Below are positions 27,085 through 49,469 of a stretch of DNA of 54,967 bases, piece by piece. Both the position numbers and the translations under genes were made by a program. The notes beneath the pieces are model-generated. The model had not been told where the DNA came from. It saw nothing but the letters and a program-made list of their open reading frames with translations, and made no database searches. Source of the DNA: an uncultured Candidatus Saccharibacteria bacterium (GTDB taxonomy: Bacteria; Patescibacteriota; Doudnabacteria; UBA920); assembly GCA_964483665.1 (NCBI GenBank), contig CAZACP010000008.1:1-54967 (forward strand), given 5' to 3'. Each line of letters begins with the position of its first letter. Position 1 is the first letter of the stretch.

Positions 27085-27085
27085 A

Positions 27086-29692
27086 TTATGGAGTTGGCGT
27101 AGGCACCTGAAGTCCGCCGTTAATTTCAAAATTTACAGAAATACTGGTGTCGGCAGACTTGCCGTTTACGTCTACTGCCTTTGCCGCAATGGTATGAATT
27201 CCTTTTCCATAGTCTTTGTTTATGTTAAAGCTGTACGGGGCGGAGTTTAAGCTTTGTACGAAAATTCCGTCTACCGAAATATCTACTCTGGCAATCGGGC
27301 TTGGGCCTGTTGCCGCGGCTTCAATATGCAGCGGCAAATTTAATACGGTAAAATCGTCTTCGGGTTGGTTAATGCTAACCGCCGGAGGGTCTCCGCTTAA
27401 AATTGGCGTGGTGCTGGCGCTAAGTCCCGCCGGGTAGCCATAGCCGTTTTTTAAGGCCCAGTTTACAACCGGGTCTTCCCAGTAAGAATTTTGCGGTCTT
27501 TCGCTATGAAGCACTACATATGTTCTAAAAGATATTTGATTGGGCGGAGTTTCGGGCGTGGCAGGGAGGCCTGTTATGGAATCAATCTGAACAGCTTGGT
27601 GCACGTTGTCGTACTCGGTGGGAACCGAATAGTCGGCAAAAACTTCTTTCTTTGTGGTAGGAGTTAGCTGGGTCGGCAGTTTTCCTGAAATACTGTCTAC
27701 ATCTATTTCTCTTATGCCGTTTGGCCTTGTGAATTCTTCTGCAGGCGTGTCCTTAAGCGCGTTTAACATAAATTCCCTCCAAATAGGCGCAGCCACAACT
27801 ACCCCGTCAGCTCCCCGCTTCATAAGACATTTGGGGTCTTTGCCCCCGCAGCTATTACCCGCCCAAACTCCGGCGGCTAAAGAAGGAGTAAAGCCCATGG
27901 TCCAGCCGTCGTTCCAGTCATTGGTGGTGCCGGTTTTAGCCGCTACTGTTCGTCCGGGCAATGTGAGCGGCGAGTTTGGGCCAAAAACATAAGCTCTGGC
28001 ATTGTTGTCGCTCATAATGCTGGTTAACAGGTAGACTGCCTGAGGATCTAAAATTTCTTGCGGGCGCGGCTGAAATTCCTCCACTGTCTGACCTGATTTG
28101 TCTTTTATTTGCAAAATAAAAGTTTTTTCATTTTTAACTCCGTTGTTGGCTAAAACAGAATAAGCAGCCACATGGTCAACTAATTTAACAGTGCATCCGC
28201 CTAACACTAAAGACAGTCCGCAGTTAGCAAGCGGGCTGGTAATACCAAGCTTTCGGGCGGTTTGAGTTGCGTTGTCTACGCCGACTAAGGCCAGGGTTTT
28301 TACAGCCGGAATGTTTAAGGAGCCTGCCAAAGCTTGCCTCATGGAAACAATACCGTGCTCGCTGCCGTCGTAATTATTGGGAATGTAGTCTTTGTTATTG
28401 AATTTGCCGAAATTCGTTACCACGTCCATTAGCATGGTAGCCGGGGCGTATTTGTTTTCTTTGCTAAAAGCGGTTACGTAAACATAGGGTTTAAAACTGC
28501 TGCCAGGCTGGCGCGGAGAAATAGCTACGTTGACCTGCGGGTCAAACAGGCACTTGCCCGGTCCGCAGCCTTCCGGTTCGCTTTTTCCAAAATAATTTTT
28601 ACTGCCCACCATAGCTAAAACCTGCCCGGTTTTAGGGTCAATGGCGACCAAAGCTTCGTTATTTGCGTTATATTTTTTTACGTTGGTTTCCGCATATTTG
28701 TTTATGGCTTCTTCGGCGATTTTTTGTAAGCGCGGATCTAATGTTGTGTAAACTTTAAGCCCGCCTTCCTGTAAAGTTTTTTCGCCAAATTTTTGTGCCA
28801 AATAATCTTCCACCATAAACACAAAATGGGGTGCGGTAATTCCGGTTTTTATTTCGCTAAAGGCAACTTTTTCTTCCTTAGCCTGTTTTTCTTGTTCTGC
28901 AGAAATATAGCCGTCTTCCCGCATTCTGGTTAGCACGTAGTCTTTTCTGCCGTCGAGCAAAGCCCTGTTTGGCCCAAAGGGGTTGTAGCGGCTGGGCGAC
29001 TGCGGCAGTGCGGCTAGGTAAGCGCTTTCCGCCAAGCTTAGGTCTTTGGCGCTTTTTCCAAAATAGCTTTGGCTGGCGGCCTCCGCCCCGTAGGTGTTTT
29101 TACCATAAGGAATTTCGTTAAGGTAAAATTCTAAGATCTGGTCTTTGGAATAGCGCGTTTCCATGGCAAGGCTTAAAATTAACTCGCGCGGTTTTCTGTC
29201 CCAGGCGCTATAGTTTCGTAAAATTGCGTTTTTAACCAGCTGCTGGGTTATGGTGCTTCCGCCTCCCCCGCTTCGGTCCAAGTTAATGGCTAAGCGCAAA
29301 ACCGCTCTGGCAATTCCCCTGAAGGAAATTCCGTGATGTTTGTAAAAGTCTTTGTCTTCTATGGCAATGGTGGCCTTTTTTAAATTTTCTGAAATTTGAT
29401 CATACGGCACCAAAGTTCTTTTTACTTCTCCGTGAATTTCATACAATAGTGAATTGTCGCGCGCGTAAATTTTTGTACTCTCCGCCACTTCTCTGCTAAT
29501 TAGCTTGCCCGGGTCGGGCAAGTCTTTGCTGTAATACAAAAATAAAATCGCGAGCAAAAAAACGCCCACCGCCGCAAACCTAAAAGCCCATAAAGCAATT
29601 GTTCGCAAATCCCATTTGCCGCCTTTGCTTCTTACTTTTTTTACTCTAATTTTTTTGTCCTTGTCTTTGCTTTCAAAACTGTAAATATGCAT
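27086..29692 (-). CDS. Class A penicillin-binding protein (transglycosylase/transpeptidase) with C-terminal Ig-like domain
   Basis: AIEDKDFYKH, GGSTITQQLVKN, RQPGSSFKP, AKTGT; real start MHIYS at 29692 after TATAAT. Confidence 0.93.
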   Translation of the reverse strand: MHIYSFESKDKDKKIRVKKVRSKGGKWDLRTIALWAFRFAAVGVFLLAILFLYYSKDLPDPGKLISREVAESTKIYARDNSLLYEIHGEVKRTLVPYDQISENLKKATIAIEDKDFYKHHGISFRGIARAVLRLAINLDRSGGGGSTITQQLVKNAILRNYSAWDRKPRELILSLAMETRYSKDQILEFYLNEIPYGKNTYGAEAASQSYFGKSAKDLSLAESAYLAALPQSPSRYNPFGPNRALLDGRKDYVLTRMREDGYISAEQEKQAKEEKVAFSEIKTGITAPHFVFMVEDYLAQKFGEKTLQEGGLKVYTTLDPRLQKIAEEAINKYAETNVKKYNANNEALVAIDPKTGQVLAMVGSKNYFGKSEPEGCGPGKCLFDPQVNVAISPRQPGSSFKPYVYVTAFSKENKYAPATMLMDVVTNFGKFNNKDYIPNNYDGSEHGIVSMRQALAGSLNIPAVKTLALVGVDNATQTARKLGITSPLANCGLSLVLGGCTVKLVDHVAAYSVLANNGVKNEKTFILQIKDKSGQTVEEFQPRPQEILDPQAVYLLTSIMSDNNARAYVFGPNSPLTLPGRTVAAKTGTTNDWNDGWTMGFTPSLAAGVWAGNSCGGKDPKCLMKRGADGVVVAAPIWREFMLNALKDTPAEEFTRPNGIREIDVDSISGKLPTQLTPTTKKEVFADYSVPTEYDNVHQAVQIDSITGLPATPETPPNQISFRTYVVLHSERPQNSYWEDPVVNWALKNGYGYPAGLSASTTPILSGDPPAVSINQPEDDFTVLNLPLHIEAAATGPSPIARVDISVDGIFVQSLNSAPYSFNINKDYGKGIHTIAAKAVDVNGKSADTSISVNFEINGGLQVPTPTP

Positions 29693-29809
29693 AGGGGTAT
29701 TATAATTGTTTTTTTTGGGTTTTGAAAGGCTATAAATAAGCTTGCTAAAAATAAATTTTGGGTATAAAATATGCGGACAATCCGTAGTAGGGATTAGATT
29801 AGGAGGTAT

Positions 29810-30604
29810 ATGAATTTTGCAAAGGAAAGGCTCCGTAAGGGCGAATTTTTGAATGTGATGTGGAGTGCGACAGGCTCTCCTCATATGATTGCGGCCGGAT
29901 GGAAGCACGGGTATCATGTCTGTTTGGCTGACGCTGAGCACAATCCTGGAATGAGCGTGGAGCGTCTTTTGAATCTGCGTAATGGTTTCATGGCGCTTCA
30001 GGCTGAACAACAGAAAGAATGCGAGTTCGGCGTCAGGGTGCCCGTGGCGAACCGTGACTGGTTGCAGCATCTTGCTGATGGTGGGGTGCGCTTGTTCGTT
30101 ATTCCCATGATCGACACAGCAGAGCAAGCAGCCGAAGTAGTAAGCATGCTCTTGTATCCGCCTTTAGGTAAACGGGGCGGTGCGGGGCATATGCCTTGCA
30201 ACTTGTATGGGGGCAACCCGCAGTATTACCAACAAGCGAACGAAAATATGTGCGTTGTTGTTCAGGCCGAGACGCCTAAAGCGCTCGGAAATCTGCCCGC
30301 AATTTCTGCGGTTGCCGGGGTTGATATGGTGTTTTTTGGTCCATTCGACCTGCACATTACTAGCGACAAAGGGTTCCGCACCGGGGATTTGGGTGTCGAG
30401 CAAACGATAAAGAATGCGGTTGCCGGGGTTCAGAACAAGCTTCGTTCGGCGCGGTTCGGGATTATGGAACCTCGGGAAGATATGCTCTGGACATGGTTTC
30501 GGTCCGGCATCCAATTTGTGGCCACTCCTGATACTGTGTTGGTCGATCGAGTATTTGCCAAGCGAGCGCAAGATGTGGTCAGTGCTTTCAACCCTGCGAC
30601 TTGA
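29810..30604 (+). CDS. HpcH/HpaI aldolase family protein
   Basis: LADAEH, IPMIDT, YPPLGKRG, VVQAET, FFGPFDL; SD AGGAGG; visibly GC-richer than neighbours. Confidence 0.88.
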   Translation: MNFAKERLRKGEFLNVMWSATGSPHMIAAGWKHGYHVCLADAEHNPGMSVERLLNLRNGFMALQAEQQKECEFGVRVPVANRDWLQHLADGGVRLFVIPMIDTAEQAAEVVSMLLYPPLGKRGGAGHMPCNLYGGNPQYYQQANENMCVVVQAETPKALGNLPAISAVAGVDMVFFGPFDLHITSDKGFRTGDLGVEQTIKNAVAGVQNKLRSARFGIMEPREDMLWTWFRSGIQFVATPDTVLVDRVFAKRAQDVVSAFNPAT

Positions 30605-30624
30605 TCTGTCTTTTCGTTGAGTGC

Positions 30625-30670
30625 AAAACCCCCTATACCCAGCCGCAACGGCCTTGGGTGTAGGGGTTTT
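30625..30670 (+). terminator. Intrinsic terminator
   Basis: aaaaccccctataccc...gggtgtaggggtttt. Confidence 0.75.
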
Positions 30671-30722
30671 CTTTTTAAATATTTAAAAAAATGGTATTAT
30701 TTATATACTTAATTCAAACTTT

Positions 30723-31886
30723 ATGAATCAAATCGAAGAAATTTTAACCAGAGGTGTGGAGGAAGTTATAGACAAGGCGCATTTAGAAAGCCTTTTAAAG
30801 AGCAAAAAAAAGTTGAGAGTTAAATTGGGCATAGACCCAACCTCCCCCAATATTCATATTGGCCGAGCAGTAGTTTTGTGGAAGCTAAGGGCTTTTCAGG
30901 AATTGGGACATAAGGTGGTTTTTATAGTCGGCGATTTTACCGGCCTTATTGGCGACACTTCGGACAAAGAGTCAGAACGTCCCATGCTTTCTGAAAAAGA
31001 AATAAAGGCCAACCTAAAAAGCTATTTTGCCCAGGCGGGAAAAATTATAGACCCCAAAAAAGCTGAAATGCATTACAACTCCAAGTGGCTAAAAAAACTG
31101 GGGTTTGCAGAAATTGGCAAGTTGGCTAATTTGTTTGGCTTGCACGAAATGTCTTCGCGGGAAAATATTGCCTTGCGGCTTAAAGCCGGCAAACCTGTTT
31201 CGCTCAGGGAGCTTCTTTACCCTCTTATGCAGGGCTACGATTCAGTTGCTGTGAAGGCCGATGTGGAGCTTGGCGGTACAGACCAGAGGTTTAATTTGCT
31301 GGCCGGACGCACAATACAAAAAGCCTACGGGCAAGAGCCGCAGGATATTTTAACCACACAAATTATGGAAGGTACAGACGGAAGGAAAATGTCTTCTTCT
31401 TGGGGCAACACGGTAAACATTACCGAAGAGCCTAACAATATGTTTGGAAAAATAATGTCTATTCCCGATGGTTTAATAAAAAAGTATTTTGTTTTGGCTA
31501 CAAGAGTGGAAATTAGGGAAATAGATGAAATAATGAAATTGCCGAATCCTAGGGATCAGAAATTAAAACTAGCCGAAGAAATTACCAAGCTTTACCATGG
31601 CGAAAAAAAAGCTTTGGTTGCTAAAGAAGCCTTTATTAATCAATTCAGTAAAGGTGAGTTGCCTGAAGAAATTGAAACAAAAAAGTTTAAAAGCGGTAGT
31701 TACAAATTATCAGAGTTGATTGTTTTAACCGGGCAGGCAGCAAGCAAGTCAGAGGCCAGAAGGCTTATTGAGCAAAAGGGTGTTAAGGTGGATCAGCAAA
31801 CCAGCGGCGATATGGAGCTTATGCTAGACGGACAAAAAGAATATTTGCTCCAGGTTGGCAAAAGAAAATTTGTGAAAATAAAATAA
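30723..31886 (+). CDS. tyrS: Tyrosyl-tRNA synthetase
   Basis: GIDPTSPNIHIG (HIGH), YPLMQGYDS, GGTDQRFN, KMSSS, S4 domain. Confidence 0.97.
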   Translation: MNQIEEILTRGVEEVIDKAHLESLLKSKKKLRVKLGIDPTSPNIHIGRAVVLWKLRAFQELGHKVVFIVGDFTGLIGDTSDKESERPMLSEKEIKANLKSYFAQAGKIIDPKKAEMHYNSKWLKKLGFAEIGKLANLFGLHEMSSRENIALRLKAGKPVSLRELLYPLMQGYDSVAVKADVELGGTDQRFNLLAGRTIQKAYGQEPQDILTTQIMEGTDGRKMSSSWGNTVNITEEPNNMFGKIMSIPDGLIKKYFVLATRVEIREIDEIMKLPNPRDQKLKLAEEITKLYHGEKKALVAKEAFINQFSKGELPEEIETKKFKSGSYKLSELIVLTGQAASKSEARRLIEQKGVKVDQQTSGDMELMLDGQKEYLLQVGKRKFVKIK

Positions 31887-31889
31887 GTC

Positions 31890-32018
31890 CGTCATCCCGG
31901 AATTTTTTCGTCTCAGTATAAAGTTAGTCGAAAAAATATCCGGGATCCAGAATAGAGCAATAAAATAGATTCCGGATATTCTGCCCATATAAATAGTTGT
32001 ACAGAATTCCGGAATGAC
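31890..32018. repeat. GTCATYCCGG...CCGGAATGAC REP/MITE-like composite palindrome
   Basis: cgtcatcccgga...atccgggatcca...tagattccgga...ttccggaatgac. Confidence 0.75.
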
Positions 32019-32107
32019 AAAGCTTGTATATATAAACTTAAAACCCCCTCAAAGCGAGGGGGTTTTAAAATCTGTGCAATCTGTATTTATCCGTGTATCT
32101 GTGAACG

Positions 32108-32236
32108 TTACATAGCGGCAGTTTCGCCGCCTTCTTCTTTTTCTTCGGTGTCGGTGGCGGTGTCGTCAGCCGGCATGCTGCCGTCGTTCATTCCGCCGTC
32201 TGTTGGGGTTCCCATTGCTTCGTCGTCAAAAAACAT
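32108..32236 (-). CDS. 42-aa highly acidic microprotein
   Basis: MFFDDEAMGTPTDGGMNDGSMPADDTATDTEEKEEGGETAAM*; AGGAAAGGAAAG upstream; coding-like codon usage. Confidence 0.65.
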   Translation of the reverse strand: MFFDDEAMGTPTDGGMNDGSMPADDTATDTEEKEEGGETAAM

Positions 32237-32346
32237 TTTACTTTCCTTTCCTTCCTCCTCCCCTCCGAATAATAGGAGAATAGGGGAAGTTATTATTTAA
32301 ACTTAAACAATTCTTAAAAAGAATTGTACAAAAAGTATACCAGCGC

Positions 32347-32838
32347 CTATTTAATATGTCTAGTCTTAGAGTGAAAAAAACCCGCACACATAGCAACCGC
32401 AAGTGCGTCTGCGGCGTCGTCTGGCTTAGGCACTTTTTTTAAGTTAAAAGTTTTTTGCACCATATATTGAACTTGTTTTTTTTCTGCTTTGCCATAACCG
32501 CAAATAAAGTTTTTTACTTGTAAGGGTGTGTATTCGTAAATAGGAATTTTATTTTTTTCGCAAATGTATAACGTAAGCCCTCGGGCTTGTGTGACTGTAA
32601 TAATAGTTTTTTGGTTGGTAGTAAAAAATATTTTTTCAATACCTACTGCTGCTGGTTTATGCTTCTCGATGATGTTAGATAGGTCATCTGCCAAAATTTT
32701 TAACCGTTCTGCATCGGAAAGTTTTTTATCGGTAGCAATCACTCCAAAATCAACCAGCTTGGGCTGGTTTGATTTAGCTATTTCGATAATACCATAGCCG
32801 GTTGTAGCGGTACCGGGGTCAATTCCGAGGATGATCAT
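32347..32838 (-). CDS. ruvC: Holliday junction resolvase RuvC
   Basis: ILGIDPG, IEKIFF, EYTPLQVK, DDAADALAVA. Confidence 0.97.
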   Translation of the reverse strand: MIILGIDPGTATTGYGIIEIAKSNQPKLVDFGVIATDKKLSDAERLKILADDLSNIIEKHKPAAVGIEKIFFTTNQKTIITVTQARGLTLYICEKNKIPIYEYTPLQVKNFICGYGKAEKKQVQYMVQKTFNLKKVPKPDDAADALAVAMCAGFFHSKTRHIK

Positions 32839-33181
32839 TTATTTTGAAATTTATAACAATAATATCGCCGCCTTTATAATTAGGATAAAGTCTTTTCCAA
32901 ATGCCCTTAGCGTTATCTTTTGTAATGTTGCTGCCAAACCTACGTGTATCATTCACTTGTAATAGGTAATCAAGGCTTTTATAGGTTTCGATAGATGTGG
33001 TAATAACCATGACTGAGTCTTGAGAAGATTTAAAAATAATTTTTTCTCCTATTATGGGCTTTATTGGAATGCTAAAGCCAGGTCTTGCTTCTGCTGTTTT
33101 TGACCCTTTTTTTATTTGATCCAAAAATTCTTGCTTAACAAAAATTGTCTGAATTCCTTTTTCTTGCTCACTACGTTCCAT
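32819..33181 (-). CDS. ASCH/PUA-like domain protein
   Basis: IFVKQEFLDQIKKGSKTAEAR motif. Confidence 0.75.
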   Translation of the reverse strand: MERSEQEKGIQTIFVKQEFLDQIKKGSKTAEARPGFSIPIKPIIGEKIIFKSSQDSVMVITTSIETYKSLDYLLQVNDTRRFGSNITKDNAKGIWKRLYPNYKGGDIIVINFKINDHPRN

Positions 33182-33185
33182 AGGA

Positions 33186-33905
33186 TTATAGGTTAGCTGA
33201 TGTATGAACCGAGATCACGTCTTCATCATTTTCTAATTCCGCAAACAGACTGTCGACTTTGGGCTTTTGGTCTTCGGTTAAGTCCACGCCTTGGGAAGAT
33301 TCTTTTATAATGTCTGCCCGGGCTATTTTCGCTCCGGCTTGTGCTAAGACTTGTTTTATTTTATTTAGTTCAAGTGGTTTGGTATAAATTTCTAAACCTT
33401 CGGTTGATTCTCTTACGTCATCGGCACCCGCGTCTATGGCCGCTAACTCAATGGCGGAAAGATTATAATCCCGCTCAACTAATATTTGTCCTTTGGTAGA
33501 AAATTGCCAGGCAACACTGTTTTGTGCACCTATACTGCCGTTGTGTTTAGAAAATATATGGCGGATATTTTGAAAAGTTCTATTAGAGTTGTCAGTCGCG
33601 CATTCTACTAAAAAGGCTGTGCCAAAAGGCCCGTAGCCTTCGTAAACAACTTCTTGTATTTGCCCAGCTCCTCCGCCGGTTGCGGCTTTTATGGCCCGTT
33701 CTATGTTGTCATTCGGCATGCCTTGGTCTTTGGCGTAGTCCACCGCGCTTTTAAGCTTAAAATTAACGCTTGGGTCACCACTGCCCCCGCCTTCTTTAAC
33801 CGCTATAGATATTTTTTTTCCGAGCTTGGAATATAAAAGCCCGCGCTTTTGATCAAGTACGCCTTTGGTACGTTTAATTTGGCTCCATTTGCTGTGTCCG
33901 GACAT
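33186..33905 (-). CDS. yebC: YebC/PmpR-family protein
   Basis: MSGHSKWSQIKR, YEGYGP, TDNSNRT. Confidence 0.97.
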   Translation of the reverse strand: MSGHSKWSQIKRTKGVLDQKRGLLYSKLGKKISIAVKEGGGSGDPSVNFKLKSAVDYAKDQGMPNDNIERAIKAATGGGAGQIQEVVYEGYGPFGTAFLVECATDNSNRTFQNIRHIFSKHNGSIGAQNSVAWQFSTKGQILVERDYNLSAIELAAIDAGADDVRESTEGLEIYTKPLELNKIKQVLAQAGAKIARADIIKESSQGVDLTEDQKPKVDSLFAELENDEDVISVHTSANL

Positions 33906-33909
33906 GATG

Positions 33910-33940
33910 ATTAAATAAAATTTTGAAATTAAATAAAATT
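33910..33940. repeat. Downstream inverted arms of the four-helix-bundle element
   Basis: attaaataaaatt (33910-22) and aaattaaataaaatt (33926-40). Confidence 0.75.
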
Positions 33941-33949
33941 AAGTAAAAT

Positions 33950-34315
33950 TTATTTATTCCTAAGATTTTTCGTGGCTGAATATTTTGACGCTGTCATAAT
34001 GGCTGTTATTTCCGAGGCCTCTTTTAACAAATCTTGGATTTCCGCTTCATTCATTAATTTTGATTCAATTATTAATTCAAGCCAAAATTGAGTTTCATCT
34101 GCTTCTTCTGCAACCACCCCAAGTTTGTTAATGAAATCTTTTGCGGACTTAGCTCAACAAACAGCGCGGTAGTTGGCAGCGACAGATGTGCCTGATCTTA
34201 AAATTTGTTTAGCAATTACAATTCCTACCGTTCCTAATTTTTCTAAATGTTGTGAAAGTTTAATAATTCTTATGGCAAATTGTTTAGTTCTTTTTTGAAG
34301 GTCGATTTTGTCCAT
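33950..34315 (-). pseudogene. Four-helix-bundle (23S rRNA IVP-like) protein with an in-frame TGA at codon 54
   Basis: MDKIDLQKRTKQFAIRII...QILRSGTSVAANYRAVC*AKSAKDFINKLGVVAEEADETQFWLEL...NK*; TGA at 34154-34156. Confidence 0.88.
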
Positions 34316-34316
34316 A

Positions 34317-34349
34317 AATTTTATTTAATTTGCTAATTTTATTTAATTT
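34317..34349. repeat. Upstream inverted arms of the four-helix-bundle element
   Basis: aattttatttaattt twice (34317-31, 34335-49), reverse complement of the downstream arm. Confidence 0.75.
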
Positions 34350-35011
34350 TTAAATGACACAAGCACGGTCATTTCCCCTTTAATAGCCGCGCGGTCTTTA
34401 AGTTGGTGTATTACGTCGTCCGGAGTGCCTCGAATGAATTCTTCATGCATTTTGGTAAGCTCGCGCGCTATTACAACTTGGGAATTTGGAAAGGCGTTGG
34501 AAATATAGGAAAGAGTTTTAAGTATTCGTTCAGGACTTTCGTAAAAAATGGCAGTAGCTTCTGCGTCCGCGGCAGACTGCAAAGCCGAAACCGCCTTTGC
34601 CGCGGTTTTTTGCAAAAAACCTAAAAACATAAATTTGTCCGTAGGAAGACCGGAGGCGGACAGCGCCACAATGGCCGCACTTGCTCCGGGGATGGGAACT
34701 ACGGCTACGTTTTGCGCTACGCATTCACGAACTAGCCTAAAGCCTGGGTCACTAATTCCGGGAGTTCCTGCGTCGGTTATTAAACAACCGTCTTGTTTTT
34801 GTAAGCGCCGGGTTAATTCTTTTACCACCTGCTGTTCGTTAAATTCCGCAAACTGTACGACCTCTTTTGGCCAGGCGTCTATATGCTGAAGCAGTCTGTT
34901 GCTATAACCTGGGTTTTCGGCAATTACAAAATTGCATGACTTAAGGCTTTTTATAGCTCTTAAAGTAATGTCTTCTAAGTTTCCTATTGGAGTTGCGACA
35001 ACGTACAACAT
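34343..35011 (-). CDS. rsmI: 16S rRNA C1402 2'-O-methyltransferase RsmI
   Basis: LYVVATPIGNLEDIT, TDAGTPGISDPG, YESPER, ARELTKMHEE. Confidence 0.96.
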   Translation of the reverse strand: MLYVVATPIGNLEDITLRAIKSLKSCNFVIAENPGYSNRLLQHIDAWPKEVVQFAEFNEQQVVKELTRRLQKQDGCLITDAGTPGISDPGFRLVRECVAQNVAVVPIPGASAAIVALSASGLPTDKFMFLGFLQKTAAKAVSALQSAADAEATAIFYESPERILKTLSYISNAFPNSQVVIARELTKMHEEFIRGTPDDVIHQLKDRAAIKGEMTVLVSFKN

Positions 35012-35020
35012 ATATTTATT

Positions 35021-35095
35021 AAATACTAATAATTACTAATATACCAATCCTTTTGTTTGATATTAGTATATTAGTATAGATTCGTATTTAGTAAA
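35021..35095. repeat. 75-bp TACTAAT/ATTAGTA element, copy 2
   Basis: Homologous to 10994-11068. Confidence 0.8.
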
Positions 35096-35096
35096 T

Positions 35097-35369
35097 CTAT
35101 TCATCTGTAGATTCTAAACCAAACATTTCTTCTATGAGCTGATATTTATTATGCAGCATTTCCCGGTATTCTCCTAATTCCCATTTAGCGTCGCCACTTG
35201 CCTGCTCATATTCTTCTTGGGTGTCTTTAAGTTCTTTGTCTATGTCCTCCAAAATTTCGTAAGCCTGGTCTTCGGTTTGCGGAGCCTGGTCCATCCACTC
35301 GTCAAAATCCATAGTTAAAAGTTTCTGATATTTTTCTTCGTATATTTCTTTTAATTTTGCCAAATCCAT
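35097..35369 (-). CDS. Acidic helical hypothetical protein
   Basis: 90-aa ORF, host-like codon usage, collinear with rsmI. Confidence 0.75.
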   Translation of the reverse strand: MDLAKLKEIYEEKYQKLLTMDFDEWMDQAPQTEDQAYEILEDIDKELKDTQEEYEQASGDAKWELGEYREMLHNKYQLIEEMFGLESTDE

Positions 35370-35386
35370 AAGCTCGTTTTAAGCAC

Positions 35387-35467
35387 CACAGAAAACTACA
35401 AAATTTAAGCAACTTTTGTAATTCAGGTTCTGCAGTTTTCTGTAGATTAATTATTAGTTTCTGTAAT
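35387..35467 (-). repeat. CAGAAAAC arm hairpin upstream of the 90-aa gene
   Basis: cacagaaaactacaaaat versus gttctgcagttttctgta; mismatches become G-U pairs on the minus strand. Confidence 0.6.
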
Positions 35468-35493
35468 TTATTTTACAATAATTTTGATATTTT

Positions 35494-35715
35494 AAAAACC
35501 CCTAATTCCACCAACTCCTTCAGGGAGTATTTTGGTAGCAGGGGTTTTTTGGATGAAAAGCCAAAAAGAAGAGTCTTTTAGCCTATGGATTAACCCGTAG
35601 GCTAACCGCCCAATAAATTGAGGCGATAATGCCGCTAAAGCGGGTTACAATTTTTTTTATTTAATTGTGTTTTATTTTTGTTTCGTTCTCCAAATGGAGA
35701 AGAATTAGCTTTTCT
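35494..35715 (-). ncRNA. Candidate structured RNA with its own promoter and terminator
   Basis: TTGCAA(35750-45)-17-TATAAT(35727-22); 10-bp closing stem 35705-14/35555-64; several internal hairpins; terminator 35494-35549; no SD-led ORF. Confidence 0.5.
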
Positions 35716-35759
35716 ATATACATTATAGCAGATCCAAAGAATTTTTGCAAGAGTAAAAA

Positions 35760-36542
35760 TTATTTATTTGAATTTCTATCAAGTCTTTTTGCTTCCGCCC
35801 ACGCAAGGTTATAAATTGTTTTCATAGCGGCACTTATTTCTTTGCTTTCTATAATTATGCCAAGTTTTTCTTTCCAAGAAGCTATCATTACTTTGTTATC
35901 ATAAATATTTATTTCGGGTGAAAAGTAAACTTTGTCAGCCGGTACGAGCGCGGATTCCCTAGCTTCCTCCGCGTCTTTGCCCGCTCTTTCTACCCCAGCT
36001 TCGTTGGAAGGAACTATGGCTTTTATATGAATGCCTTTATTGGTTCTTCTTTTGTAATATTTAGGAAAATAATCAGGCAAGGCTTTGTGCATTTCGTTTA
36101 CGTTAGCATAAGCTAAAATGGTTTCGTGCGATGCTAGTGTGTCCTCATAAACTTGCTCAACACCCTTCATGCCCTCATAGAACATAACTTTCGGCCTATC
36201 TGTAATATTGTGTAGAGATTTAAGCTGTGGCACCAAATTTTGTGCTTGTAAAAGCTCTTGTTGTTTTGTTTCTATTTCATCTTGAATTTTTTTTAATATT
36301 TTGTCCGGGCTTTCAGCGACGTATTCCTGAAGCGGTTCTTTGCCTGAAATACTAACCAAGCCTTTTGAAATTAAAGACTCTAAGATGTCATAAACCGTAG
36401 TTCTGTTTATACCCGACTTTCTGGCAATTGGCGAAACAGTTCTTTTGCCTAATTCCAATAAAGCCAAATAGACCAAGGCTTCTTTTTCAGAAAAACCAAT
36501 CGAAATTAGACTTTTATATAGAGGAGAGTTAATGTCTAGCAT
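35760..36542 (-). CDS. TrmB-family transcriptional regulator (paralog 4)
   Basis: Start MLDINS at 36542, 6 nt after TATACT; GFSEKEALVY...INRTTVY; PKVMFYEG; EINIYDNKV. Confidence 0.88.
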   Translation of the reverse strand: MLDINSPLYKSLISIGFSEKEALVYLALLELGKRTVSPIARKSGINRTTVYDILESLISKGLVSISGKEPLQEYVAESPDKILKKIQDEIETKQQELLQAQNLVPQLKSLHNITDRPKVMFYEGMKGVEQVYEDTLASHETILAYANVNEMHKALPDYFPKYYKRRTNKGIHIKAIVPSNEAGVERAGKDAEEARESALVPADKVYFSPEINIYDNKVMIASWKEKLGIIIESKEISAAMKTIYNLAWAEAKRLDRNSNK

Positions 36543-36653
36543 ATATAAAGTATATGCTATTTCTTGAATTGTGTCAATAGCTTTCCACAAAAAATATAAA
36601 ATATAGAAATTTAGCCTAAATAAAACCTTTTTACACAATGAAAATGACGCTTA

Positions 36654-36685
36654 ATATTGACAATATATTAAATATACTGTATTAT
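36654..36685 (+). promoter_or_regulatory. Cargo promoter TTGACA-17-TATTAT with palindrome ATATTG-A-CAATAT over the -35
   Basis: Read directly at 36654-36666 (palindrome), 36657-62 (-35) and 36680-85 (-10). Confidence 0.6.
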
Positions 36686-36775
36686 TACACGTTAAAACAA
36701 AAATCACCCGGCGGGGTTTAAACGTATAAGAAAATTAGTTTAGTTTTTTTGAAAGAGTGAGTTATAAGGAGGTTT

Positions 36776-37186
36776 ATGAAGTTAACCATGAATACGGCTT
36801 TGGTTATTGCGATCCCTTGCCCCCACTGCGGGAGGATTCAGGGCCCGCACAAACCTGGATGTTTACAAACCCAACTTTTAGAGCTGTGCACAAAGAGAAG
36901 GCATCTTTCATGCCCCCTCTGCGACAAGAACGCCGTGGATGTTAACAATAACGATTATTGGGAATGCCGCGAGTGTTGCGCCCAGTTCAGGAACGGAAAA
37001 TTGGATGTTTCGCGTTTGTCTTCGAAGGACGGCAAACAGCATATGATAATTGATTTTAATGAGGACTGCGTCTATCCCGTGCTTCTTTTGTCCAGAAAAG
37101 GGCGCGGCAATTTTCCTATCGATCGAGCGATTCGTAAAATCGAATGCAAGATCGAAAGAAAGGCGAACAAACAAGAAGGCAAATAA
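36776..37186 (+). CDS. Cys-rich, probably Zn-binding hypothetical protein (cargo of trmB-4)
   Basis: CPHC..HKPGC and CPLC...CREC motifs; SD AAGGAGG. Confidence 0.75.
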   Translation: MKLTMNTALVIAIPCPHCGRIQGPHKPGCLQTQLLELCTKRRHLSCPLCDKNAVDVNNNDYWECRECCAQFRNGKLDVSRLSSKDGKQHMIIDFNEDCVYPVLLLSRKGRGNFPIDRAIRKIECKIERKANKQEGK

Positions 37187-37268
37187 GAGCCTTGTCCCCC
37201 ACAAATTTAAACCCCGCTGCTTGCAAGCGGCGAAGCAAAAGATAGGTGATCCGTACGGATTCCTGTCT

Positions 37269-38045
37269 TTATTTTTTACCGTCCTGTCTTTTCGCCTCAA
37301 GCCACGCCAGTTCAAATATCTTTTTCATCGCCTCGGCAATTTCGGCACTTTCTATGGTGATACCAAGTTCTTCGCGCCAAGAGGCTATCATAATTTTGTT
37401 GTTGTAAATATTAATTTCTGGAGTAAAGGAATATTTGTCGGCAGGGACCAGCGCGGTTTGCCTTATTTGAATTTTGTCGTCTTTTCTAAGTTCCCTTGCG
37501 GCTGGGGTGTCCGGAAAAATTGCGCGAATAGGAATTTTCTTTTTTGCACGTCTAAAGTAATAGTCCGGAAAATATTCAGGCAAAGCCACGTTGTTGTCTT
37601 CAACATGGGCAAAAGCCCGAATAGGCTCCTTGGAAGTTAAGGTGTCTTCGTATACTTCTTTTATGCCTTCCATTCCTTCATAAAATCTAACCTTTGGCCT
37701 GTCTTTTACATTATGAATACTTTTAAGTTGCGGGATTATGTTTTTTGCTTGTTCTATAAACGCTTGGTTTTTTTCTATGTAGTGGTTAAACATAGCAATT
37801 ATTTTGTCTGGGTTTTCCGCCGCGTATTCTTGTTTTGGCTCTTTGCCGGAAATATTTACTACCCCCCTGGTAAGTAACGAATTTAAAATATGGTAACAAG
37901 TAGTTCTGTTTATAGCTGCTCTTTGTGCTATTTGTGATACAGTACCCTTGCCAAGTTCGAGTAAAGACAGATAAATGTCTGCTTCTTTGCTCGAGAAACC
38001 TAAAGTGATAAGCGAATTTTGAAGTATAAAATGTTGTTCTTGCAT
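37269..38045 (-). CDS. TrmB-family transcriptional regulator (paralog 5)
   Basis: GFSSKEADIY...INRTTCY; close paralog of 35760-36542. Confidence 0.88.
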   Translation of the reverse strand: MQEQHFILQNSLITLGFSSKEADIYLSLLELGKGTVSQIAQRAAINRTTCYHILNSLLTRGVVNISGKEPKQEYAAENPDKIIAMFNHYIEKNQAFIEQAKNIIPQLKSIHNVKDRPKVRFYEGMEGIKEVYEDTLTSKEPIRAFAHVEDNNVALPEYFPDYYFRRAKKKIPIRAIFPDTPAARELRKDDKIQIRQTALVPADKYSFTPEINIYNNKIMIASWREELGITIESAEIAEAMKKIFELAWLEAKRQDGKK

Positions 38046-38050
38046 ATAAG

Positions 38051-38063
38051 GTCTAATTTAGAC
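38051..38063. promoter_or_regulatory. Candidate operator GTCTAA-T-TTAGAC between the trmB-5 promoter and its start codon
   Basis: Perfect palindrome downstream of TTGACA-17-TATACT on the minus strand. Confidence 0.55.
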
Positions 38064-38232
38064 TTAACTAGTATAGTTATGTTTTAATTTTGTGTCAATT
38101 TTTTTGCACAAAAATTTATTATTTTAAATATATCTTATAAACAAAAGCAAAAATGAATTTATTTTGACCATAAATCTTGACAGTATATGAAATATATGTT
38201 AAATTAACGGGTCTCAAAAGGAGGAGACTAGT

Positions 38233-38817
38233 GTGGAGACCCTGCTTCAAATTTGGGGAGGGTTGTTCTACACCCTCAACAAGATTTTCTTTGCTTTCTC
38301 TGAACAAGCCAAAGCACGGGGTAAGCTGGTTTTGTACAAACAATGGCGCGTTGGTTCTTGGGTCTTGTACCTGCTTGGTCTGCCGGCTTGGGTGATTCTT
38401 CTGGCGGGCAAGCATGCGTGGATAGCTGCGGCTTTGGAGGCCGGCGGCGGTCCGGCGATGCTGCTTGGTCTGGTAACCGCTTTGCGAGGTACTGCCAAAG
38501 ACCCGCCTAAGTGGTTAGACCGTCTTGCCTTTTACTGCATTGTATTGGGTCTTGGGTATAGCGTGTATGACTTTGGGGGAATTAACACTCTTGCTCAATG
38601 GTTGGAGCTTGGCCTTGCTTCAGGCTATTTGGTCGGAACCTACAAGCTGGCGCGGGAACACAGTAGCGGGTATCTTTGGTACTTGTTAATGCACATATCT
38701 TGCGGCTGGCTAATGCTGGTTTCTGGCTACTACGGCTTGGCTTTCCAGCAAGGCCTGTCATTGGTGTTTATTACGGACGCTTATCGAATCTCAAGGAGAG
38801 GGAACAATGAAAAGTAG
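38233..38817 (+). CDS. Polytopic membrane protein (cargo of trmB-5)
   Basis: About 6-7 TM segments; SD AGGAGG; GTG start; GC-richer than neighbours. Confidence 0.75.
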   Translation: METLLQIWGGLFYTLNKIFFAFSEQAKARGKLVLYKQWRVGSWVLYLLGLPAWVILLAGKHAWIAAALEAGGGPAMLLGLVTALRGTAKDPPKWLDRLAFYCIVLGLGYSVYDFGGINTLAQWLELGLASGYLVGTYKLAREHSSGYLWYLLMHISCGWLMLVSGYYGLAFQQGLSLVFITDAYRISRRGNNEK

Positions 38818-39271
38818 AATTGTCGCGGGACAGCATAGCTTGTCTCTATGTGAGGAGAAAAAACTATACAAACTAGCTGATACGCAACTCGAAGATAAAA
38901 TTCGAGAGACGCTTCCTGTGCTTGTTTCTGCTCATCTATCGCAGTTTAGCGAGCTGCAATCGGAAATCAAACTGTTCAACTCCTTGCTCTGGATTTACAT
39001 TCAGCGGAAAGGGGTTCTGGAAAGGGTAGCCGACAATGTTCGTTTGTTGCTTTGGGTCCAATACCGAATTTCAAGCATTAACGCATTTGCTGCAAAACTT
39101 GGATTAAACCCGTCCTTTGTTGGCGGACTCCTTGGAGGGGAAGAAGCTAAATTGGGTGGTTGGAACTTGGCGAATTTGATGAGGATATGCGGGGTGTTGA
39201 AGGTAAGTCCGGAGGTTTTGTTGTTTGCGGATTTGGCAGCAGCGGTTCGTGCGGTGTCGGGGACGAAATAG
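38807..39271 (+). CDS. Protein with C-terminal XRE-type helix-turn-helix
   Basis: SINAFAAKLGLNPSFVGGLLGG...NLANLMRICGVLKVSPEVLL. Confidence 0.65.
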   Translation: MKSRIVAGQHSLSLCEEKKLYKLADTQLEDKIRETLPVLVSAHLSQFSELQSEIKLFNSLLWIYIQRKGVLERVADNVRLLLWVQYRISSINAFAAKLGLNPSFVGGLLGGEEAKLGGWNLANLMRICGVLKVSPEVLLFADLAAAVRAVSGTK

Positions 39272-39345
39272 ATGGGATGGCTAATAATTTAACGAAACAC
39301 CACAACTTCGGTATTGGTCTGTGAGAGCCTCATCCTTACAAATTA

Positions 39346-39386
39346 AAAAGGCAGGTTTCGCGTCCGCGATCCTGCCTTTCTTTTTT
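39346..39386. terminator. Bidirectional terminator
   Basis: aaaggcagg...cctgccttt plus T-run. Confidence 0.75.
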
Positions 39387-39392
39387 ATTTTT

Positions 39393-39665
39393 TTATGAAA
39401 CCGAAATTTTCAGTTTGGCATCTAAGGCCTCAGTTAACCTATATAGAAACTGCAAAGAAGGACTGAAGTCGCCCCGTTCGAGGCGGGATATTACAGGTTG
39501 TTTGGTATTGGCTTTTATTGCGAGTTGTTTTTGGGTTAAGCCTTCTTTTAGGCGTTTTTCTATTATCATTTCAACCACGGCAAATTCCGGACCTAGGTCT
39601 TTATAGGCTTTTTTTATTTTTTTATTTTTTAGTAGCTGTCTTTTTAAATTTTTATAGCTATTCAT
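39393..39665 (-). CDS. HigA-type XRE HTH antitoxin
   Basis: RLKEGLTQKQLAIKANTKQPVISRLERG. Confidence 0.85.
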   Translation of the reverse strand: MNSYKNLKRQLLKNKKIKKAYKDLGPEFAVVEMIIEKRLKEGLTQKQLAIKANTKQPVISRLERGDFSPSLQFLYRLTEALDAKLKISVS

Positions 39666-39723
39666 AAATATTAGATAGGTTAGTGTACTTGCACATGTAA
39701 TATACTCTATAGGTTATATTGTG

Positions 39724-40032
39724 TCAAGCTGTCAAAATCCTATATTTGTTTAATGCTTTTTCTATTTCTTTTTGAGGTGCTTTTTCGGATTTTTTTATAT
39801 ACCCTGATAGCAGATAGATTTGATTTTTGTGAAAACAATAAAATATCCGCACTTCCTGTTGCCCTCTTGCTCTTAGTTCAAAAAGACTATCTATTATTTT
39901 TTTACTGTGAGGCGTGCTAAGATAAGAACCAAATTTTTCAAGTAAATCAATCGTCCTTAACACTTTTGCGACTGTTTGTGTTTCCAAAGAGTAAATAAAT
40001 TTTTCCACAGATGAATCTATATGAATTTGCAT
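39724..40032 (-). CDS. RelE/HigB-type (Gp49-like) toxin
   Basis: PHSKKIIDSLFELRARGQQEVRIFYCF...GYIKKSEKAP; toxin lies upstream of antitoxin. Confidence 0.85.
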   Translation of the reverse strand: MQIHIDSSVEKFIYSLETQTVAKVLRTIDLLEKFGSYLSTPHSKKIIDSLFELRARGQQEVRIFYCFHKNQIYLLSGYIKKSEKAPQKEIEKALNKYRILTA

Positions 40033-40038
40033 ATAAAT

Positions 40039-40596
40039 TTATCTTATTTGGCTTTTTACATATTTCAACAACACACTGCCTTTGTTGTTAAGTTTTTTTA
40101 TTGAAGCAAGTTTGAATTTGTTATTTAAAACAGTGTCTCCAAACAAACTAATTCCTTGGCCAAAAACAAGCGGTTCGATGGTTAAATATAGTTCATCTAA
40201 CAAATTATTTTTTAAACAATATGCGTAGGTTTGCGCTCCGCCTAAAATGGCAACTTTTTTATATTTAAGTTTAGCAATTAATTTTTTAACATCGATTTTA
40301 CTTGGATTACAATATAAAAGTTTGTCTGATTTTTTTACCGCACCCTCACCCCGACCCTCTCCCACAGGGAGAGGGGGAAGAGAACGGCTAAAAACAAGAC
40401 AATTTCTTTTGCTCAAAGGCTTTATGGCAGTTTGGTAGGTGTTGTTGCCGACTATTACCAAATCGCAAGTATCAAGTAGCGCACGCATAAAAACTTTGTC
40501 TTCTTTGCTAGTCCAGGAAGAGTTGTGCTTGGGGCCTTTGGCAATGCGCCCGTCCAAGGTAATTGCAGCTATGGCTATGAATTTAGGATTGACCAT
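40039..40596 (-). CDS. Dihydrofolate reductase / RibD C-terminal-like protein
   Basis: AAITLDGRIA, VIVGNNTY, ILGGAQTY, LDELYLTIEPLVFGQG. Confidence 0.85.
   Translation of the reverse strand: MVNPKFIAIAAITLDGRIAKGPKHNSSWTSKEDKVFMRALLDTCDLVIVGNNTYQTAIKPLSKRNCLVFSRSLPPLPVGEGRGEGAVKKSDKLLYCNPSKIDVKKLIAKLKYKKVAILGGAQTYAYCLKNNLLDELYLTIEPLVFGQGISLFGDTVLNNKFKLASIKKLNNKGSVLLKYVKSQIR
40343..40375. repeat. CCCTCTCCC...GGGAGAGGG palindrome inside the DHFR-like gene
   Basis: ccctcaccccgaccctctcccacagggagaggg; encodes PLPVGEGRGEG. Confidence 0.85.
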
Positions 40597-40694
40597 AATT
40601 GACCAAAATTAAATAAAATTGAGCATAATTGTAAAAATTCAAAACAATGCTATAATTCAGTATCTTTAATAATTATCTTACATTAAGTAACAAA

Positions 40695-41426
40695 ATGCCA
40701 GAGCAAACGCAGGATAAATTTTTAGGCAAAGAGCCTAAATACTACGACCTTTTTATGGCCATGTTTGTAGCCATATTAATAGTTTCGGAAATTACTTCTA
40801 CTAAACTAATTCATATTGGCCCCTTTAGGACAGCCGGAGCAATTATACTTTTTCCTTTGGCTTACATAGTTAGCGACGTCTTAACTGAAGTTTACGGCTA
40901 TGCCAGGGCTAGAAGAGTTATGTGGGTTGGATTTATGTCTTTAATTTTAATGTCCCTAGTTTTAACTATTGTGCAGTATTTGCCGGCTGCGCCTATTTGG
41001 AATAATCAGGAAGCTTACGAAAAAGTTTTAGGCTTTGTACCCAGAATTTCTATAGCCAGCATAATTGCCTATTGGGCCGGCGGGTTTGCCAACGATTTTA
41101 CTTTGGCTAAAATGAAACTTATAACAAAAGGCAAAATGCTTTGGGCTCGCACCATAGGTTCTACCGCGGTTGGTCAGGCTGTAGACTCCGTTTTGTTTAT
41201 AGGTATTGCGTATTATGCAATTTTGCCAATCCAGGTTATTTTGCAAATTGCGTTGACCCAGTATTTACTAAAGCTGACCTATGAGACTGTGGCAACTCCC
41301 CTTACTTATTTTGTGGTAAACAAACTTAAGAAAGCCGAAGGCTTAGATGTCTACGACACCAACACCAATTTTACGCCGTTTAAATTTAAGCTAGACAGAG
41401 AAGCTAGACTTTCCGAAAATGTTTAA
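40695..41426 (+). CDS. yhhQ: Queuosine precursor transporter (YhhQ/VUT family)
   Basis: FPLAYIVSDVLTEVYG, RISIASIIAY, STAVGQAVDS. Confidence 0.88.
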   Translation: MPEQTQDKFLGKEPKYYDLFMAMFVAILIVSEITSTKLIHIGPFRTAGAIILFPLAYIVSDVLTEVYGYARARRVMWVGFMSLILMSLVLTIVQYLPAAPIWNNQEAYEKVLGFVPRISIASIIAYWAGGFANDFTLAKMKLITKGKMLWARTIGSTAVGQAVDSVLFIGIAYYAILPIQVILQIALTQYLLKLTYETVATPLTYFVVNKLKKAEGLDVYDTNTNFTPFKFKLDREARLSENV

Positions 41427-49368: not shown

Positions 49369-49469
49369 TTAACAATTAATCAAATTAATATAGGTTTATA
49401 ATCATTTTTTGACAACGATTAGCCGTTGTTTTTTTGTCCTCAACTATTATAAAATTTTTATAGCGGACA

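Follow-up and report, generated by a model that had tools for sequence, protein, structure and literature searches.

The 54,967-nt stretch of DNA analyzed here (the window, meaning that whole stretch) comes from a bacterium of the Patescibacteria, or candidate phyla radiation (CPR). Between its minus-strand housekeeping genes rsmI and yebC lies a small gene of the four-helix-bundle family that is interrupted by one nonsense codon and flanked by two complementary arms (33910-34350). Read in the direction of transcription, the locus is composed of the following features.

34343 to 35011, minus strand: host gene rsmI (16S rRNA C1402 2'-O-methyltransferase; TIGR00096), upstream in the operon, with its stop codon within the 5' arm
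34317 to 34350, minus strand: 5' (upstream) arm, two direct AAATTAAATAAAATT units on the mRNA strand, ending at the ATG (repeat search; Tandem Repeats Finder (TRF) period 10, 3.6 copies)
34157 to 34315, minus strand: codons 1-53 of the four-helix-bundle gene, helices 1-2 (translation of the open reading frame (ORF), PF05635/TIGR02436, AlphaFold2 (AF2) model of an orthologue)
34154 to 34156, minus strand: in-frame TGA, codon 54, at a conserved Arg position in the loop after helix 2 (sequence, assemblies, relatives)
33950 to 34153, minus strand: codons 55-121 and the TAA (33950-33952), helices 3-4, untranslated unless read through (sequence, profile matches)
33910 to 33950, minus strand: 3' (downstream) arm, AATTTTACTTAATTTTATTTAATTTCAAAATTTTATTTAAT on the mRNA strand, complementary to the 5' arm (repeat search; TRF period 10, 4.3 copies; pairing in the minimum free energy (MFE) and centroid structures)
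33186 to 33905, minus strand: host gene yebC (NF001030), downstream in the operon

The four-helix-bundle ORF runs on the minus strand from the ATG at 34315-34313 to the TAA at 33952-33950 and has 121 codons, of which codon 54 (34154-34156) is the TGA. Because the ORF list breaks the gene into pieces of 53 and 55 aa, it was missed by the ORF track. A first-pass annotation made from the sequence alone had nevertheless proposed a 121-codon gene here, between rsmI (TIGR00096, E 2e-65) upstream and yebC (NF001030, E 2e-76) downstream on the same strand, and had likened it to the proteins of 23S rRNA intervening sequences (IVSs). The profile matches bear this out: the read-through translation, with X at codon 54, matches Pfam PF05635 (23S_rRNA_IVP; E 2.2e-17, 63.6 bits, cutoff 33.8) and NCBIfam TIGR02436 ('four helix bundle protein'; E 5e-24, 84.6 bits, cutoff 24). 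The window protein also matched PDB entry 2RLD (phmmer E 6.5e-19, profile E 4e-37). The AF2 model of P0001, the closest intact orthologue (84% identical), consists of four helices (pLDDT 94.8) and was aligned to 2RLD by Foldseek with TM values of 0.83-0.90. Foldseek further aligned it to Avd, a protein of diversity-generating retroelements (DGRs), at TM 0.65-0.80 with weak E-values of ~0.5 (4DWL, 8UB7); a profile search of the PDB did not detect Avd and returned 2RLD as the sole match, and the Avd relation is at the fold level only. With this qualification, the earlier assignment to the family of 23S rRNA IVS ORFs with an Avd-like fold stands (PMC4990558; bioRxiv 10.1101/2023.10.23.563531).

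According to the helix boundaries of the P0001 model, codon 54 maps to the loop after helix 2, and the truncated product would be half a four-helix bundle. The reading frame expected of a PF05635/TIGR02436 member is therefore not intact owing to the TGA, and from its sequence we classify the window gene as a pseudogene member of this family. PF05635-type four-helix-bundle proteins are abundant, with at least 7,800 matches at E ≤ 1e-10 among up to 8,000 scored candidates. An identity as the HEPN 'LA2681' family was considered and dropped, as LA2681 is a different family (PMC3710099). As to the upstream neighbor, the RsmI encoded in the window has 222 aa and covers positions 1-219 of the 275 of TIGR00096, without the usual C-terminal part; in several of the relatives L012, L013, L015, L016 and L020, RsmI has insertions of 20-50 aa in the middle of the protein.

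The nonsense codon is the same in nine independent assemblies. The loci, which were collected by exact-protein look-up of YebC in wastewater and activated-sludge assemblies (JGI and two ENA sets), include nine from three sets of assemblies that are 100% identical over 501 nt around the element, and the public runs with the locus comprise DNA and metatranscriptome data. A tenth locus (L007) starts with 206 nt of GC-rich, prepilin-peptidase-like sequence joined near window position 34165 and is a chimeric assembly rather than a variant. A contig of a diverged strain (run X12) that spans 33865-34217 has T at 34156 on the plus strand, giving AGA (Arg) at codon 54; its other changes in the gene are two synonymous substitutions and one Ala/Val exchange. 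A sequencing error at 34156, for which a check had been suggested, is thus not borne out. The column of codon 54 holds Arg in 21 of 24 aligned relatives, and ten relatives, all intact, encode the position by AGA (five), CGA (two), CGC (two) or AGG (one). Intact orthologues also occupy the same rsmI-yebC site (P0009 in L224, L016, L013 and P0001). These data uphold the claim that the gene has been inactivated by a single nonsense codon in place of a conserved Arg, and the change of Arg54 to TGA is, on these comparisons, real, derived and fixed in the sampled population. The proposed origin of the TGA from CGA did not fare as well: AGA is the more likely ancestral codon given the reading of the nearest diverged strain, and CGA is possible in principle only.

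We also considered that the TGA might not act as a stop, owing to an alternative genetic code, selenocysteine or programmed read-through. TGA is indeed reassigned in some CPR lineages, and the element is still intact in its arms and in the half of the gene that follows the TGA. Against this, TGA terminates 10 of the 59 long ORFs of the window and is for this reason taken as an ordinary stop, no gene is fragmented under table 11, the family residue at codon 54 is Arg rather than Gly, Trp or Sec, and the sister strain has an Arg codon there. An alternative code was rejected on the 10 of 59 ORFs, and the explanation as a whole is extremely improbable.

The repeat search located the arms at 33910-33940 and 34317-34347 (31 nt, 90% complementary, 376 nt between them), and the whole element measures 441 nt (33910-34350). 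On the mRNA strand, the 5' arm reads AAATTAAATAAAATT-agc-AAATTAAATAAAATT and is directly followed by T-ATG, and the rsmI stop codon (34343-34345) lies inside its outer AAATTAAATAAAATT unit, in agreement with the first-pass description of complementary arms one of which overlaps that stop. The 3' arm consists of two AATTTTATTTAAT units and a third, degenerate unit; it begins at the stop codon of the cassette and ends 4 nt short of the yebC ATG. The arms are 100% A/T, with TRF periods of 10 or 18, and the predicted stem takes in the AU of the AUG as well as the UAA stop of the four-helix-bundle gene. A 13-mer of the arms (≤1 mismatch) occurs eight times in the window against 1.4 expected, and five of the eight occurrences fall within the element.

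In folding predictions of a 461-nt RNA, both the MFE and the centroid structures pair the arms and enclose the whole coding sequence (CDS) (dG -89.8 kcal/mol, z -2.5, 0 of 100 shuffles as stable); the RNA stem discussed below is this predicted structure. By folding energy alone, the locus is unremarkable among the window genes. Since energy is a poor statistic for pure A/T arms, we used an ungapped complementarity score of the 50-nt flanks, which reached 22 at the window locus as compared with a mean of 6.2 (standard deviation 1.2, maximum 11) at 59 other window genes and a mean of 6.1 (maximum 13) at 101 control genes of related loci. Consensus matching in 33700-35200 found no promoter-like site on either strand and no terminator-like site on the strand of the gene, the single terminator-like match being on the plus strand (34774-34790), and a promoter or terminator role of the arms was rejected on these grounds.

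For the comparison of sites we used the genomes of YebC relatives, which are Patescibacteria/CPR metagenome-assembled genomes labelled Candidatus Doudnabacteria or, loosely, 'Saccharibacteria'. Five of them have an empty rsmI-yebC junction with a spacer of 10-70 nt and without these arms (L014, L015, L017, L019, L020), as one would expect of a mobile unit under the first-pass proposal. Four carry an intact four-helix-bundle gene at this junction (L013, L016, L224 with P0009, and the P0001 contig), and five carry unrelated genes there (L011, L012, L018, L021, L039). In three of the latter (L011, L012, L039), an intact four-helix-bundle gene lies upstream of rsmI instead. A second, divergent four-helix-bundle gene (motif IAEGSNR) with inverted arms of its own is found between yebC and ruvC in two genomes (L013:3768-4133 and L039:3756-4118). 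The rsmI-yebC operon has therefore been hit repeatedly, since cassettes are located upstream of rsmI, between rsmI and yebC, and between yebC and ruvC. In the window, the yebC-ruvC position is taken by an unrelated 120-aa ORF (32819-33181) with no NCBIfam match. The 'empty' rsmI-yebC spacer of L014 (L014:2933-3000) holds a GC-rich hairpin of ~65 nt, GTAGCGTGCC ... GGCACGCTAC, which may be another element without an ORF.

Homologues of the four-helix-bundle gene were also found at other sites, in each case co-oriented with their neighbors and with 35-50 nt on each side: between a 100-aa ORF and a TraG-like gene (L211), between genes for a GT5 glycogen synthase and a GH57 enzyme (L217), between pilB and pilC (L218), and between smpB and a PLD-like gene (L221). 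At 11 four-helix-bundle loci, the flank-complementarity scores were 22, 16, 18, 8, 19, 22, 12, 15, 21, 17 and 21 (median 18), the score of 8 being a gapped case and the remaining ones 12-22, whereas the 160 control genes averaged 6.2 and did not exceed 13. Arms are thus strongly enriched around such genes by this score, contrary to what chance low-complexity matches, the condition named in the first-pass annotation, would give. The duplex energy z-scores were between -2.5 and -7.2 in 10 of the 11 loci.

To resolve families of arms, each upstream arm was paired with every downstream arm in a matrix of cognate and non-cognate combinations. One family, ATTAAATAAAATT, comprises the arms of the window, L224, L211, L217 and L221 and, in part, those of L016 and L218, the latter two having private inner arms; a second family, GAATGACAAGA, comprises those of L011, L012, L039 and L013. 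Protein identity among the window, L224, L211 and L217 is 73-84%, and their genes all have ATTAAATAAAATT arms at three sites in different genomes; at a fourth site, the smpB-PLD junction (L221), a cassette with the ATTAAATAAAATT motif encodes a protein 65-69% identical to these. Conversely, L013 occupies the same rsmI-yebC site as the window element and has arms of the GAATGACAAGA family. The comparisons show that the arms belong to the cassette and not to the host site. In all 11 loci, the GC content of the CDS is lower than that of the flanks, which we list as a sign of apparently foreign composition. Contigs of run X6 (metatranscriptome) that match the main contig in depth (32-35x) contain these arm sequences at other places, and one of them begins with MNPKDLQQR, the start of P0062, an intact paralogue (64-65% identical) from the same samples located between smpB and PLD. 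Taken together, the distribution shows that the gene and its arms form a unit that comes and goes and exists in several copies.

Beside the locus, a ~4.7-kb block (window ~35400-40030) contains genes for two TrmB-like regulators, unknown ORFs, an HTH_37/HTH_3-domain gene and a Gp49-domain gene. It is present in the window, L001 and L005 and absent from L002, L003 and L009, where RibD_C/Vut_1/F420-ligase genes directly follow the 90-aa ORF, and is a strain-variable island.

The same design recurs in the window with an unrelated cargo.

2686 to 3153, minus strand: second cassette with GxxExxY cargo (PD-(D/E)XK-like, TIGR04256/PF13366), CDS 2730 to 3113 (profile match and arms)

This gene matches TIGR04256 (E 5e-34), most likely starts at the ATG at 3113, and directly follows a gene for a PilB/T2SSE-like ATPase. 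Its arms (2686-2721 and 3118-3153) are 36 nt long and 81% complementary, and five of their seven mismatches are G:U on the sense strand. Five homologous GxxExxY loci are all armed, with TACGGAT/TACAGAT/TACGAAT-like units and duplexes of -40 to -51 kcal/mol, and lie directly after pilB in three cases and after other co-oriented genes in the rest. The earlier claim that two unrelated families share one stem-enclosed design is supported. The design is not entirely undescribed, as the build is that of an ORF-bearing 23S rRNA IVS placed in an mRNA operon. The junction after pilB/T2SSE (window 3155-4798 / 2730-3113; L218, L227, L228) contains GxxExxY in three genomes and a four-helix-bundle gene, between pilB and pilC, in another, and looks from these arrangements like a recurrent insertion point.

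Two hairpins without an ORF extend over their spacers from the stop of one gene to the start of the next: 35013-35100 (minus strand, z -4.9), between the 90-aa ORF and rsmI, and 10988-11068 (plus strand, z -4.0). The former fills the very spacer that holds the four-helix-bundle cassette in L011, L012 and L039. These stem-loops are 85-90 nt long with arms of 34-39 nt built from TACTAAT/TACGAAT/TACAAAT units, and window positions 35062-35096 are matched by many other contigs of the same samples. A third hairpin with TTCGAA-type units (~10690-10760) seems to follow the gene ending at 10668. Elsewhere in the window, a 20-nt inverted repeat (48835-48854 and 49373-49392, 90% complementary) encloses 518 nt of a divergent intergenic region with an 88-aa ORF (48967-49233), which may be another enclosed small gene.

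Beyond the CPR, plasmid homologues of the four-helix-bundle gene in cyanobacteria, Chloroflexota, Bacteroidota and a spirochaete are co-oriented with their neighbors inside operons, in the contexts DUF1156-four-helix-bundle-Swt1/HEPN in two phyla, csx2-four-helix-bundle-cas1, and FabH-four-helix-bundle-peptidase. The flanks of these plasmid loci are tandem heptamers, inverted in four of seven; examples are Nostoc, with (AATTCGC)x4 upstream and (GCGAATT)x4 downstream (score 33), and Planktothrix, with CCCCAAT/CGTAAAT arrays (score 26). Inverted arms were also found at 5 of 11 viral-contig loci (scores 13-33). From these counts, the stem-enclosed design is widespread yet not obligatory for the four-helix-bundle family. 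As for gene content, the DUF1156 and Swt1-family HEPN arrangement occurs on plasmids of Chlorohelix and Gloeocapsa (L231, L232), which belong to different phyla, the csx2 and cas1 arrangement occurs in Pseudanabaena, and the family is often found within defence-type operons.

We propose that 33910-34350 is a decayed, promoterless, mobile, stem-enclosed cassette, which is IVS-like and processed in the operon RNA; this full account is probable, and its narrower core, a mobile stem-enclosed cassette that is now a pseudogene, may be held with considerably greater confidence. Such a cassette would comprise a four-helix-bundle gene (PF05635/TIGR02436) between a 5' arm and a 3' arm complementary to it, together ~440 nt, lodged in the spacer between the housekeeping genes rsmI and yebC of a wastewater Patescibacteria (CPR) bacterium. 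All neighbors at the loci examined are co-oriented with the cassette, and the alignments of sites indicate that cassettes lie flush between the stop and start codons of what appear to be co-transcribed genes, always in the same orientation, and that they are mobile on evolutionary time scales and variable in cargo. Co-transcription is supported by the lack of promoter-like and same-strand terminator-like sites in 33700-35200, by the co-orientation of the neighbors, and by metatranscriptome contigs that run colinearly through the locus. The cassette would be transcribed within the operon RNA, where the arms would pair into a stem of ~30 bp closing the entire CDS in a loop. RNase III may then cut this stem, by analogy with rRNA IVSs; we regard this step as tentative, its chances being somewhat below even. 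Cutting would free the cassette RNA and leave the host messages capped by stems, and insertion would then cost the host little and be nearly neutral. The cargo might bind its own arms, as Avd binds the stem-loop beside its gene. Since the cargo is not a recombinase and GxxExxY shares the arm type, mobility would probably depend on a trans-acting factor reading the arm structure or the tandem units, for which the use of analogous arms by this unrelated cargo argues.

Several observations weigh against this account or limit it. The arm-arm duplex is all A-U and, at about -19 to -23 kcal/mol, a weak stem, and the arm energy of the L224 orthologue is no better than that of shuffles. Assembled contigs of four metatranscriptomes, which may contain DNA and do not resolve RNA ends, are colinear and unprocessed across the locus. 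A strand test was also applied, on the rationale that G:U wobbles and a lower sense-strand energy should favor an RNA-level stem: the sense-strand duplex was better in 6 of the 11 four-helix-bundle loci, with a mean difference of -0.6 kcal/mol. MAFFT with RNAalifold gave no consensus structure on the repetitive, AT-rich and register-shifted arm constructs. No target-site duplication is apparent when occupied and empty junctions, AT-rich and diverged as they are, are compared; no recombinase or transposase is encoded in the element or the flanks examined, and there is no rnc gene in the window. Outside the CPR, two of the seven plasmid loci have direct rather than inverted flanking arrays, and 6 of the 11 viral-contig loci have no arms. 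At the GxxExxY arms the strand test is only suggestive of an RNA-level stem, with 24 sense versus 11 antisense G:U pairs. One X6 contig (2.1x) joins the arm sequences at 33959 and 34315 via 26 unrelated nt (ACAAATTAACAAATTTTATACTACAG); rather than a spliced form, it more likely represents a hairpin of another locus that has these arms and lacks an ORF.

Among the other explanations, the one to be taken most seriously, though unlikely, is an element acting at the DNA level, in which the arms are terminal inverted repeats or hairpin/cruciform sites of a non-autonomous cassette, that is, a miniature inverted-repeat transposable element (MITE) with cargo, moved by a transposase or recombinase encoded in trans, and the RNA stem is a by-product. 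Presence and absence at the same site together with close relatives at different sites, arm sequences conserved within subfamilies across genomes and sites, several same-arm loci at equal depth, ORF-less hairpins with related tandem-unit arms that exactly fill 35013-35100 and 10988-11068, and the outcome of the sense/antisense test at the four-helix-bundle arms, without RNA-strand bias, would all fit such an element. Its weak points are that no target-site duplication is visible at the AT-rich, diverged junctions and no transposase was seen near any locus examined, that the number and sequence of arm units vary among same-site orthologues while complementarity is kept, and that a DNA transposon would need neither the strict co-orientation with operons nor arms abutting start and stop codons. 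Another explanation is a purely regulatory stem without excision, the arms sequestering the cassette start and crowding the yebC start so that translation of the cassette and of the downstream gene is coupled to ribosomes terminating upstream, or the stem protecting the mRNA from exonucleases. In its favor, the AU of the AUG and the UAA are both part of the stem, the rsmI stop lies in the outer 5' unit, 4 nt separate the 3' arm from the yebC AUG, and no Shine-Dalgarno-like sequence was seen ahead of any of these genes. Yet such a role leaves the mobility and the design shared with an unrelated cargo unexplained and has no experimental support, and the premature stop, which would keep ribosomes from opening the 3' arm, has been tolerated and fixed; we therefore judge it improbable.

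Two further explanations deny the cassette its arms. The arms could be the host's own, with the gene having landed in the loop of a pre-existing intergenic hairpin in the way that rRNA IVSs extend pre-existing helices, a scenario in keeping with the ORF-less hairpins in other spacers of this genome and the GC-rich hairpin in the L014 spacer. A hairpin is missing in four of the five empty sites and these arms in all five, one arm sequence recurs beside related genes at four unrelated sites, and L013 has a different arm family at the same site, so that this scenario is already disfavored and has very little probability left. Alternatively, the arms might be chance low-complexity matches in an AT-rich spacer and the ORF an ordinary decaying gene. 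Their pure A/T composition, the failure of energy alone to set the locus apart from window genes, and the occurrence of the double 13-mer arm pattern in at least 120 unrelated AT-rich metagenome contigs, none of which encodes a four-helix-bundle gene, speak for chance; the score of 22 against a control maximum of 11-13 over 160 genes, duplex energies reached by only 0-1 of 200 shuffles in 8 of 11 loci, and the recurrence of arms of differing sequence around relatives speak against it. Energy shuffles, flank scores and the arm pairing matrix together have refuted the chance explanation, to which we assign next to no probability.

The closest known counterpart of the proposed cassette is the ORF-bearing IVS of 23S rRNA, as in Coxiella burnetii (S23p) and Leptospira. 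In Coxiella, the IVS has a length of 428-444 nt; its ends form a stem of 28 bp around an S23p ORF, and RNase III cleaves this stem in the middle (PMC4990558). The window element shares with such IVSs the protein family (PF05635, 'S23 ribosomal protein family'), the size class (~440 nt here against 428-444 nt, within the ~430-750 nt expected of an IVS), inverted repeats that close the ORF in a loop (31 bp here against 28 bp), and a start codon next to the 5' arm. Both also have a lower GC content than the host, a sporadic presence, and an ORF that is often dispensable or decaying (PMC4990558); the sporadic distribution expected of an IVS is seen here in the five empty and four occupied rsmI-yebC sites and the other cargo in five. 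In contrast to an IVS, the window element is located in an mRNA operon between protein genes rather than in helix 9, 25 or 45, and an Rfam search of the window found tRNAs only and no rRNA, placing the element outside the location that defines an IVS. Its arms are, moreover, pure A/T arrays of short tandem units, and RNase III processing, known for the IVSs, is proposed here by analogy.

The RNA to which Avd binds is a stem-loop that directly follows the avd gene and pairs with the 3' codons of that gene (bioRxiv 10.1101/2023.10.23.563531). The four-helix-bundle fold is common to both (Foldseek TM 0.65-0.80 to 4DWL/8UB7), whereas, unlike in a DGR, Pfam hits identified no reverse transcriptase among the genes within 6 kb on either side, and no template/variable repeat pair was found within ~7 kb on either side (27000-41000). 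This interval contains no direct repeat above 30 nt, and the two 30-nt families found in it are only 73% identical. A DGR remnant was rejected on the lack of a reverse transcriptase and of a template/variable repeat pair nearby. BT_0352 (PDB 2RLD), a Bacteroides protein assigned to the 'S23 ribosomal protein family', and Xcc0516 (2GSC) are homologous stand-alone four-helix-bundle proteins of unknown function; both are structural-genomics targets that come without an analysis of function or genomic context.

With MITEs, the cassettes have in common inverted terminal repeats, several copies, presence/absence polymorphism and ORF-less derivatives. They differ in that the window cassette carries a cargo gene, that no target-site duplication was found, that the arms are internally tandem and vary while remaining complementary, and that the units are co-oriented with operons and flush with start and stop codons. 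Integron cassettes are likewise promoterless, variable in cargo, expressed from host promoters and defined by an imperfect inverted repeat, but attC lies wholly 3' of the ORF and the cassettes are stacked at attI beside an integrase, whereas here the halves of the repeat flank the ORF, and single insertions are scattered over operon spacers with no integrase among the neighbors. An identity as integron cassette was rejected for these reasons. The tandem heptamers in the arms of the cyanobacterial and viral-contig relatives recall the cyanobacterial short tandemly repeated repetitive (STRR) sequences and the TAACTGA arrays of Beggiatoaceae. The STRR repeats are reportedly heptamers, as Mazel et al. 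are said to have described in 1990. Such arrays are described as direct and upstream of genes instead of inverted pairs enclosing a gene, and the window arms have a period of 10 or 18, not 7. The intergenic TAACTGA arrays of Beggiatoaceae end just before start codons (PMC4679880), as do the arms of the cyanobacterial and viral-contig relatives.

In the searchable literature, we came across no account of either four-helix-bundle or GxxExxY genes forming stem-enclosed cassettes in operons. A broader conception, which is speculative and rather doubtful at present, is that four-helix-bundle genes, GxxExxY genes and ORF-less hairpins are cargo variants of one mobile class of 'stem cassettes', defined by structure and spread across bacterial phyla. 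Such a class would insert promoterless genes at transcribed, non-essential RNA positions, namely the loops of rRNA helices and those operon spacers in which it lies flush with the stop and start codons, and the host would tolerate it because the paired arms are processed out of the transcript; one mobility mechanism, acting in trans on arm structure or tandem units, would be shared, and the 23S rRNA IVSs would be the special case resident in rRNA.

The 23S rRNA IVSs have been known since ~1990, and their origin, their mobility and the role of their ORFs are still debated (PMC4990558). The present locus and its relatives point to an ORF-plus-stem unit of the IVS type in ordinary mRNA operons, and offer cleanly occupied and empty alleles alongside arms of several subfamilies and cargo from two or more unrelated families. 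For annotation, such units would account for the small 'hypothetical' genes and the unusual AT-rich palindromes by which conserved CPR operons are interrupted. For the biology of the family, they may provide a tractable system, comparative as well as experimental, in which to follow how the unit moves, whether its stem serves as an RNase III insulator, and what the four-helix-bundle proteins do.

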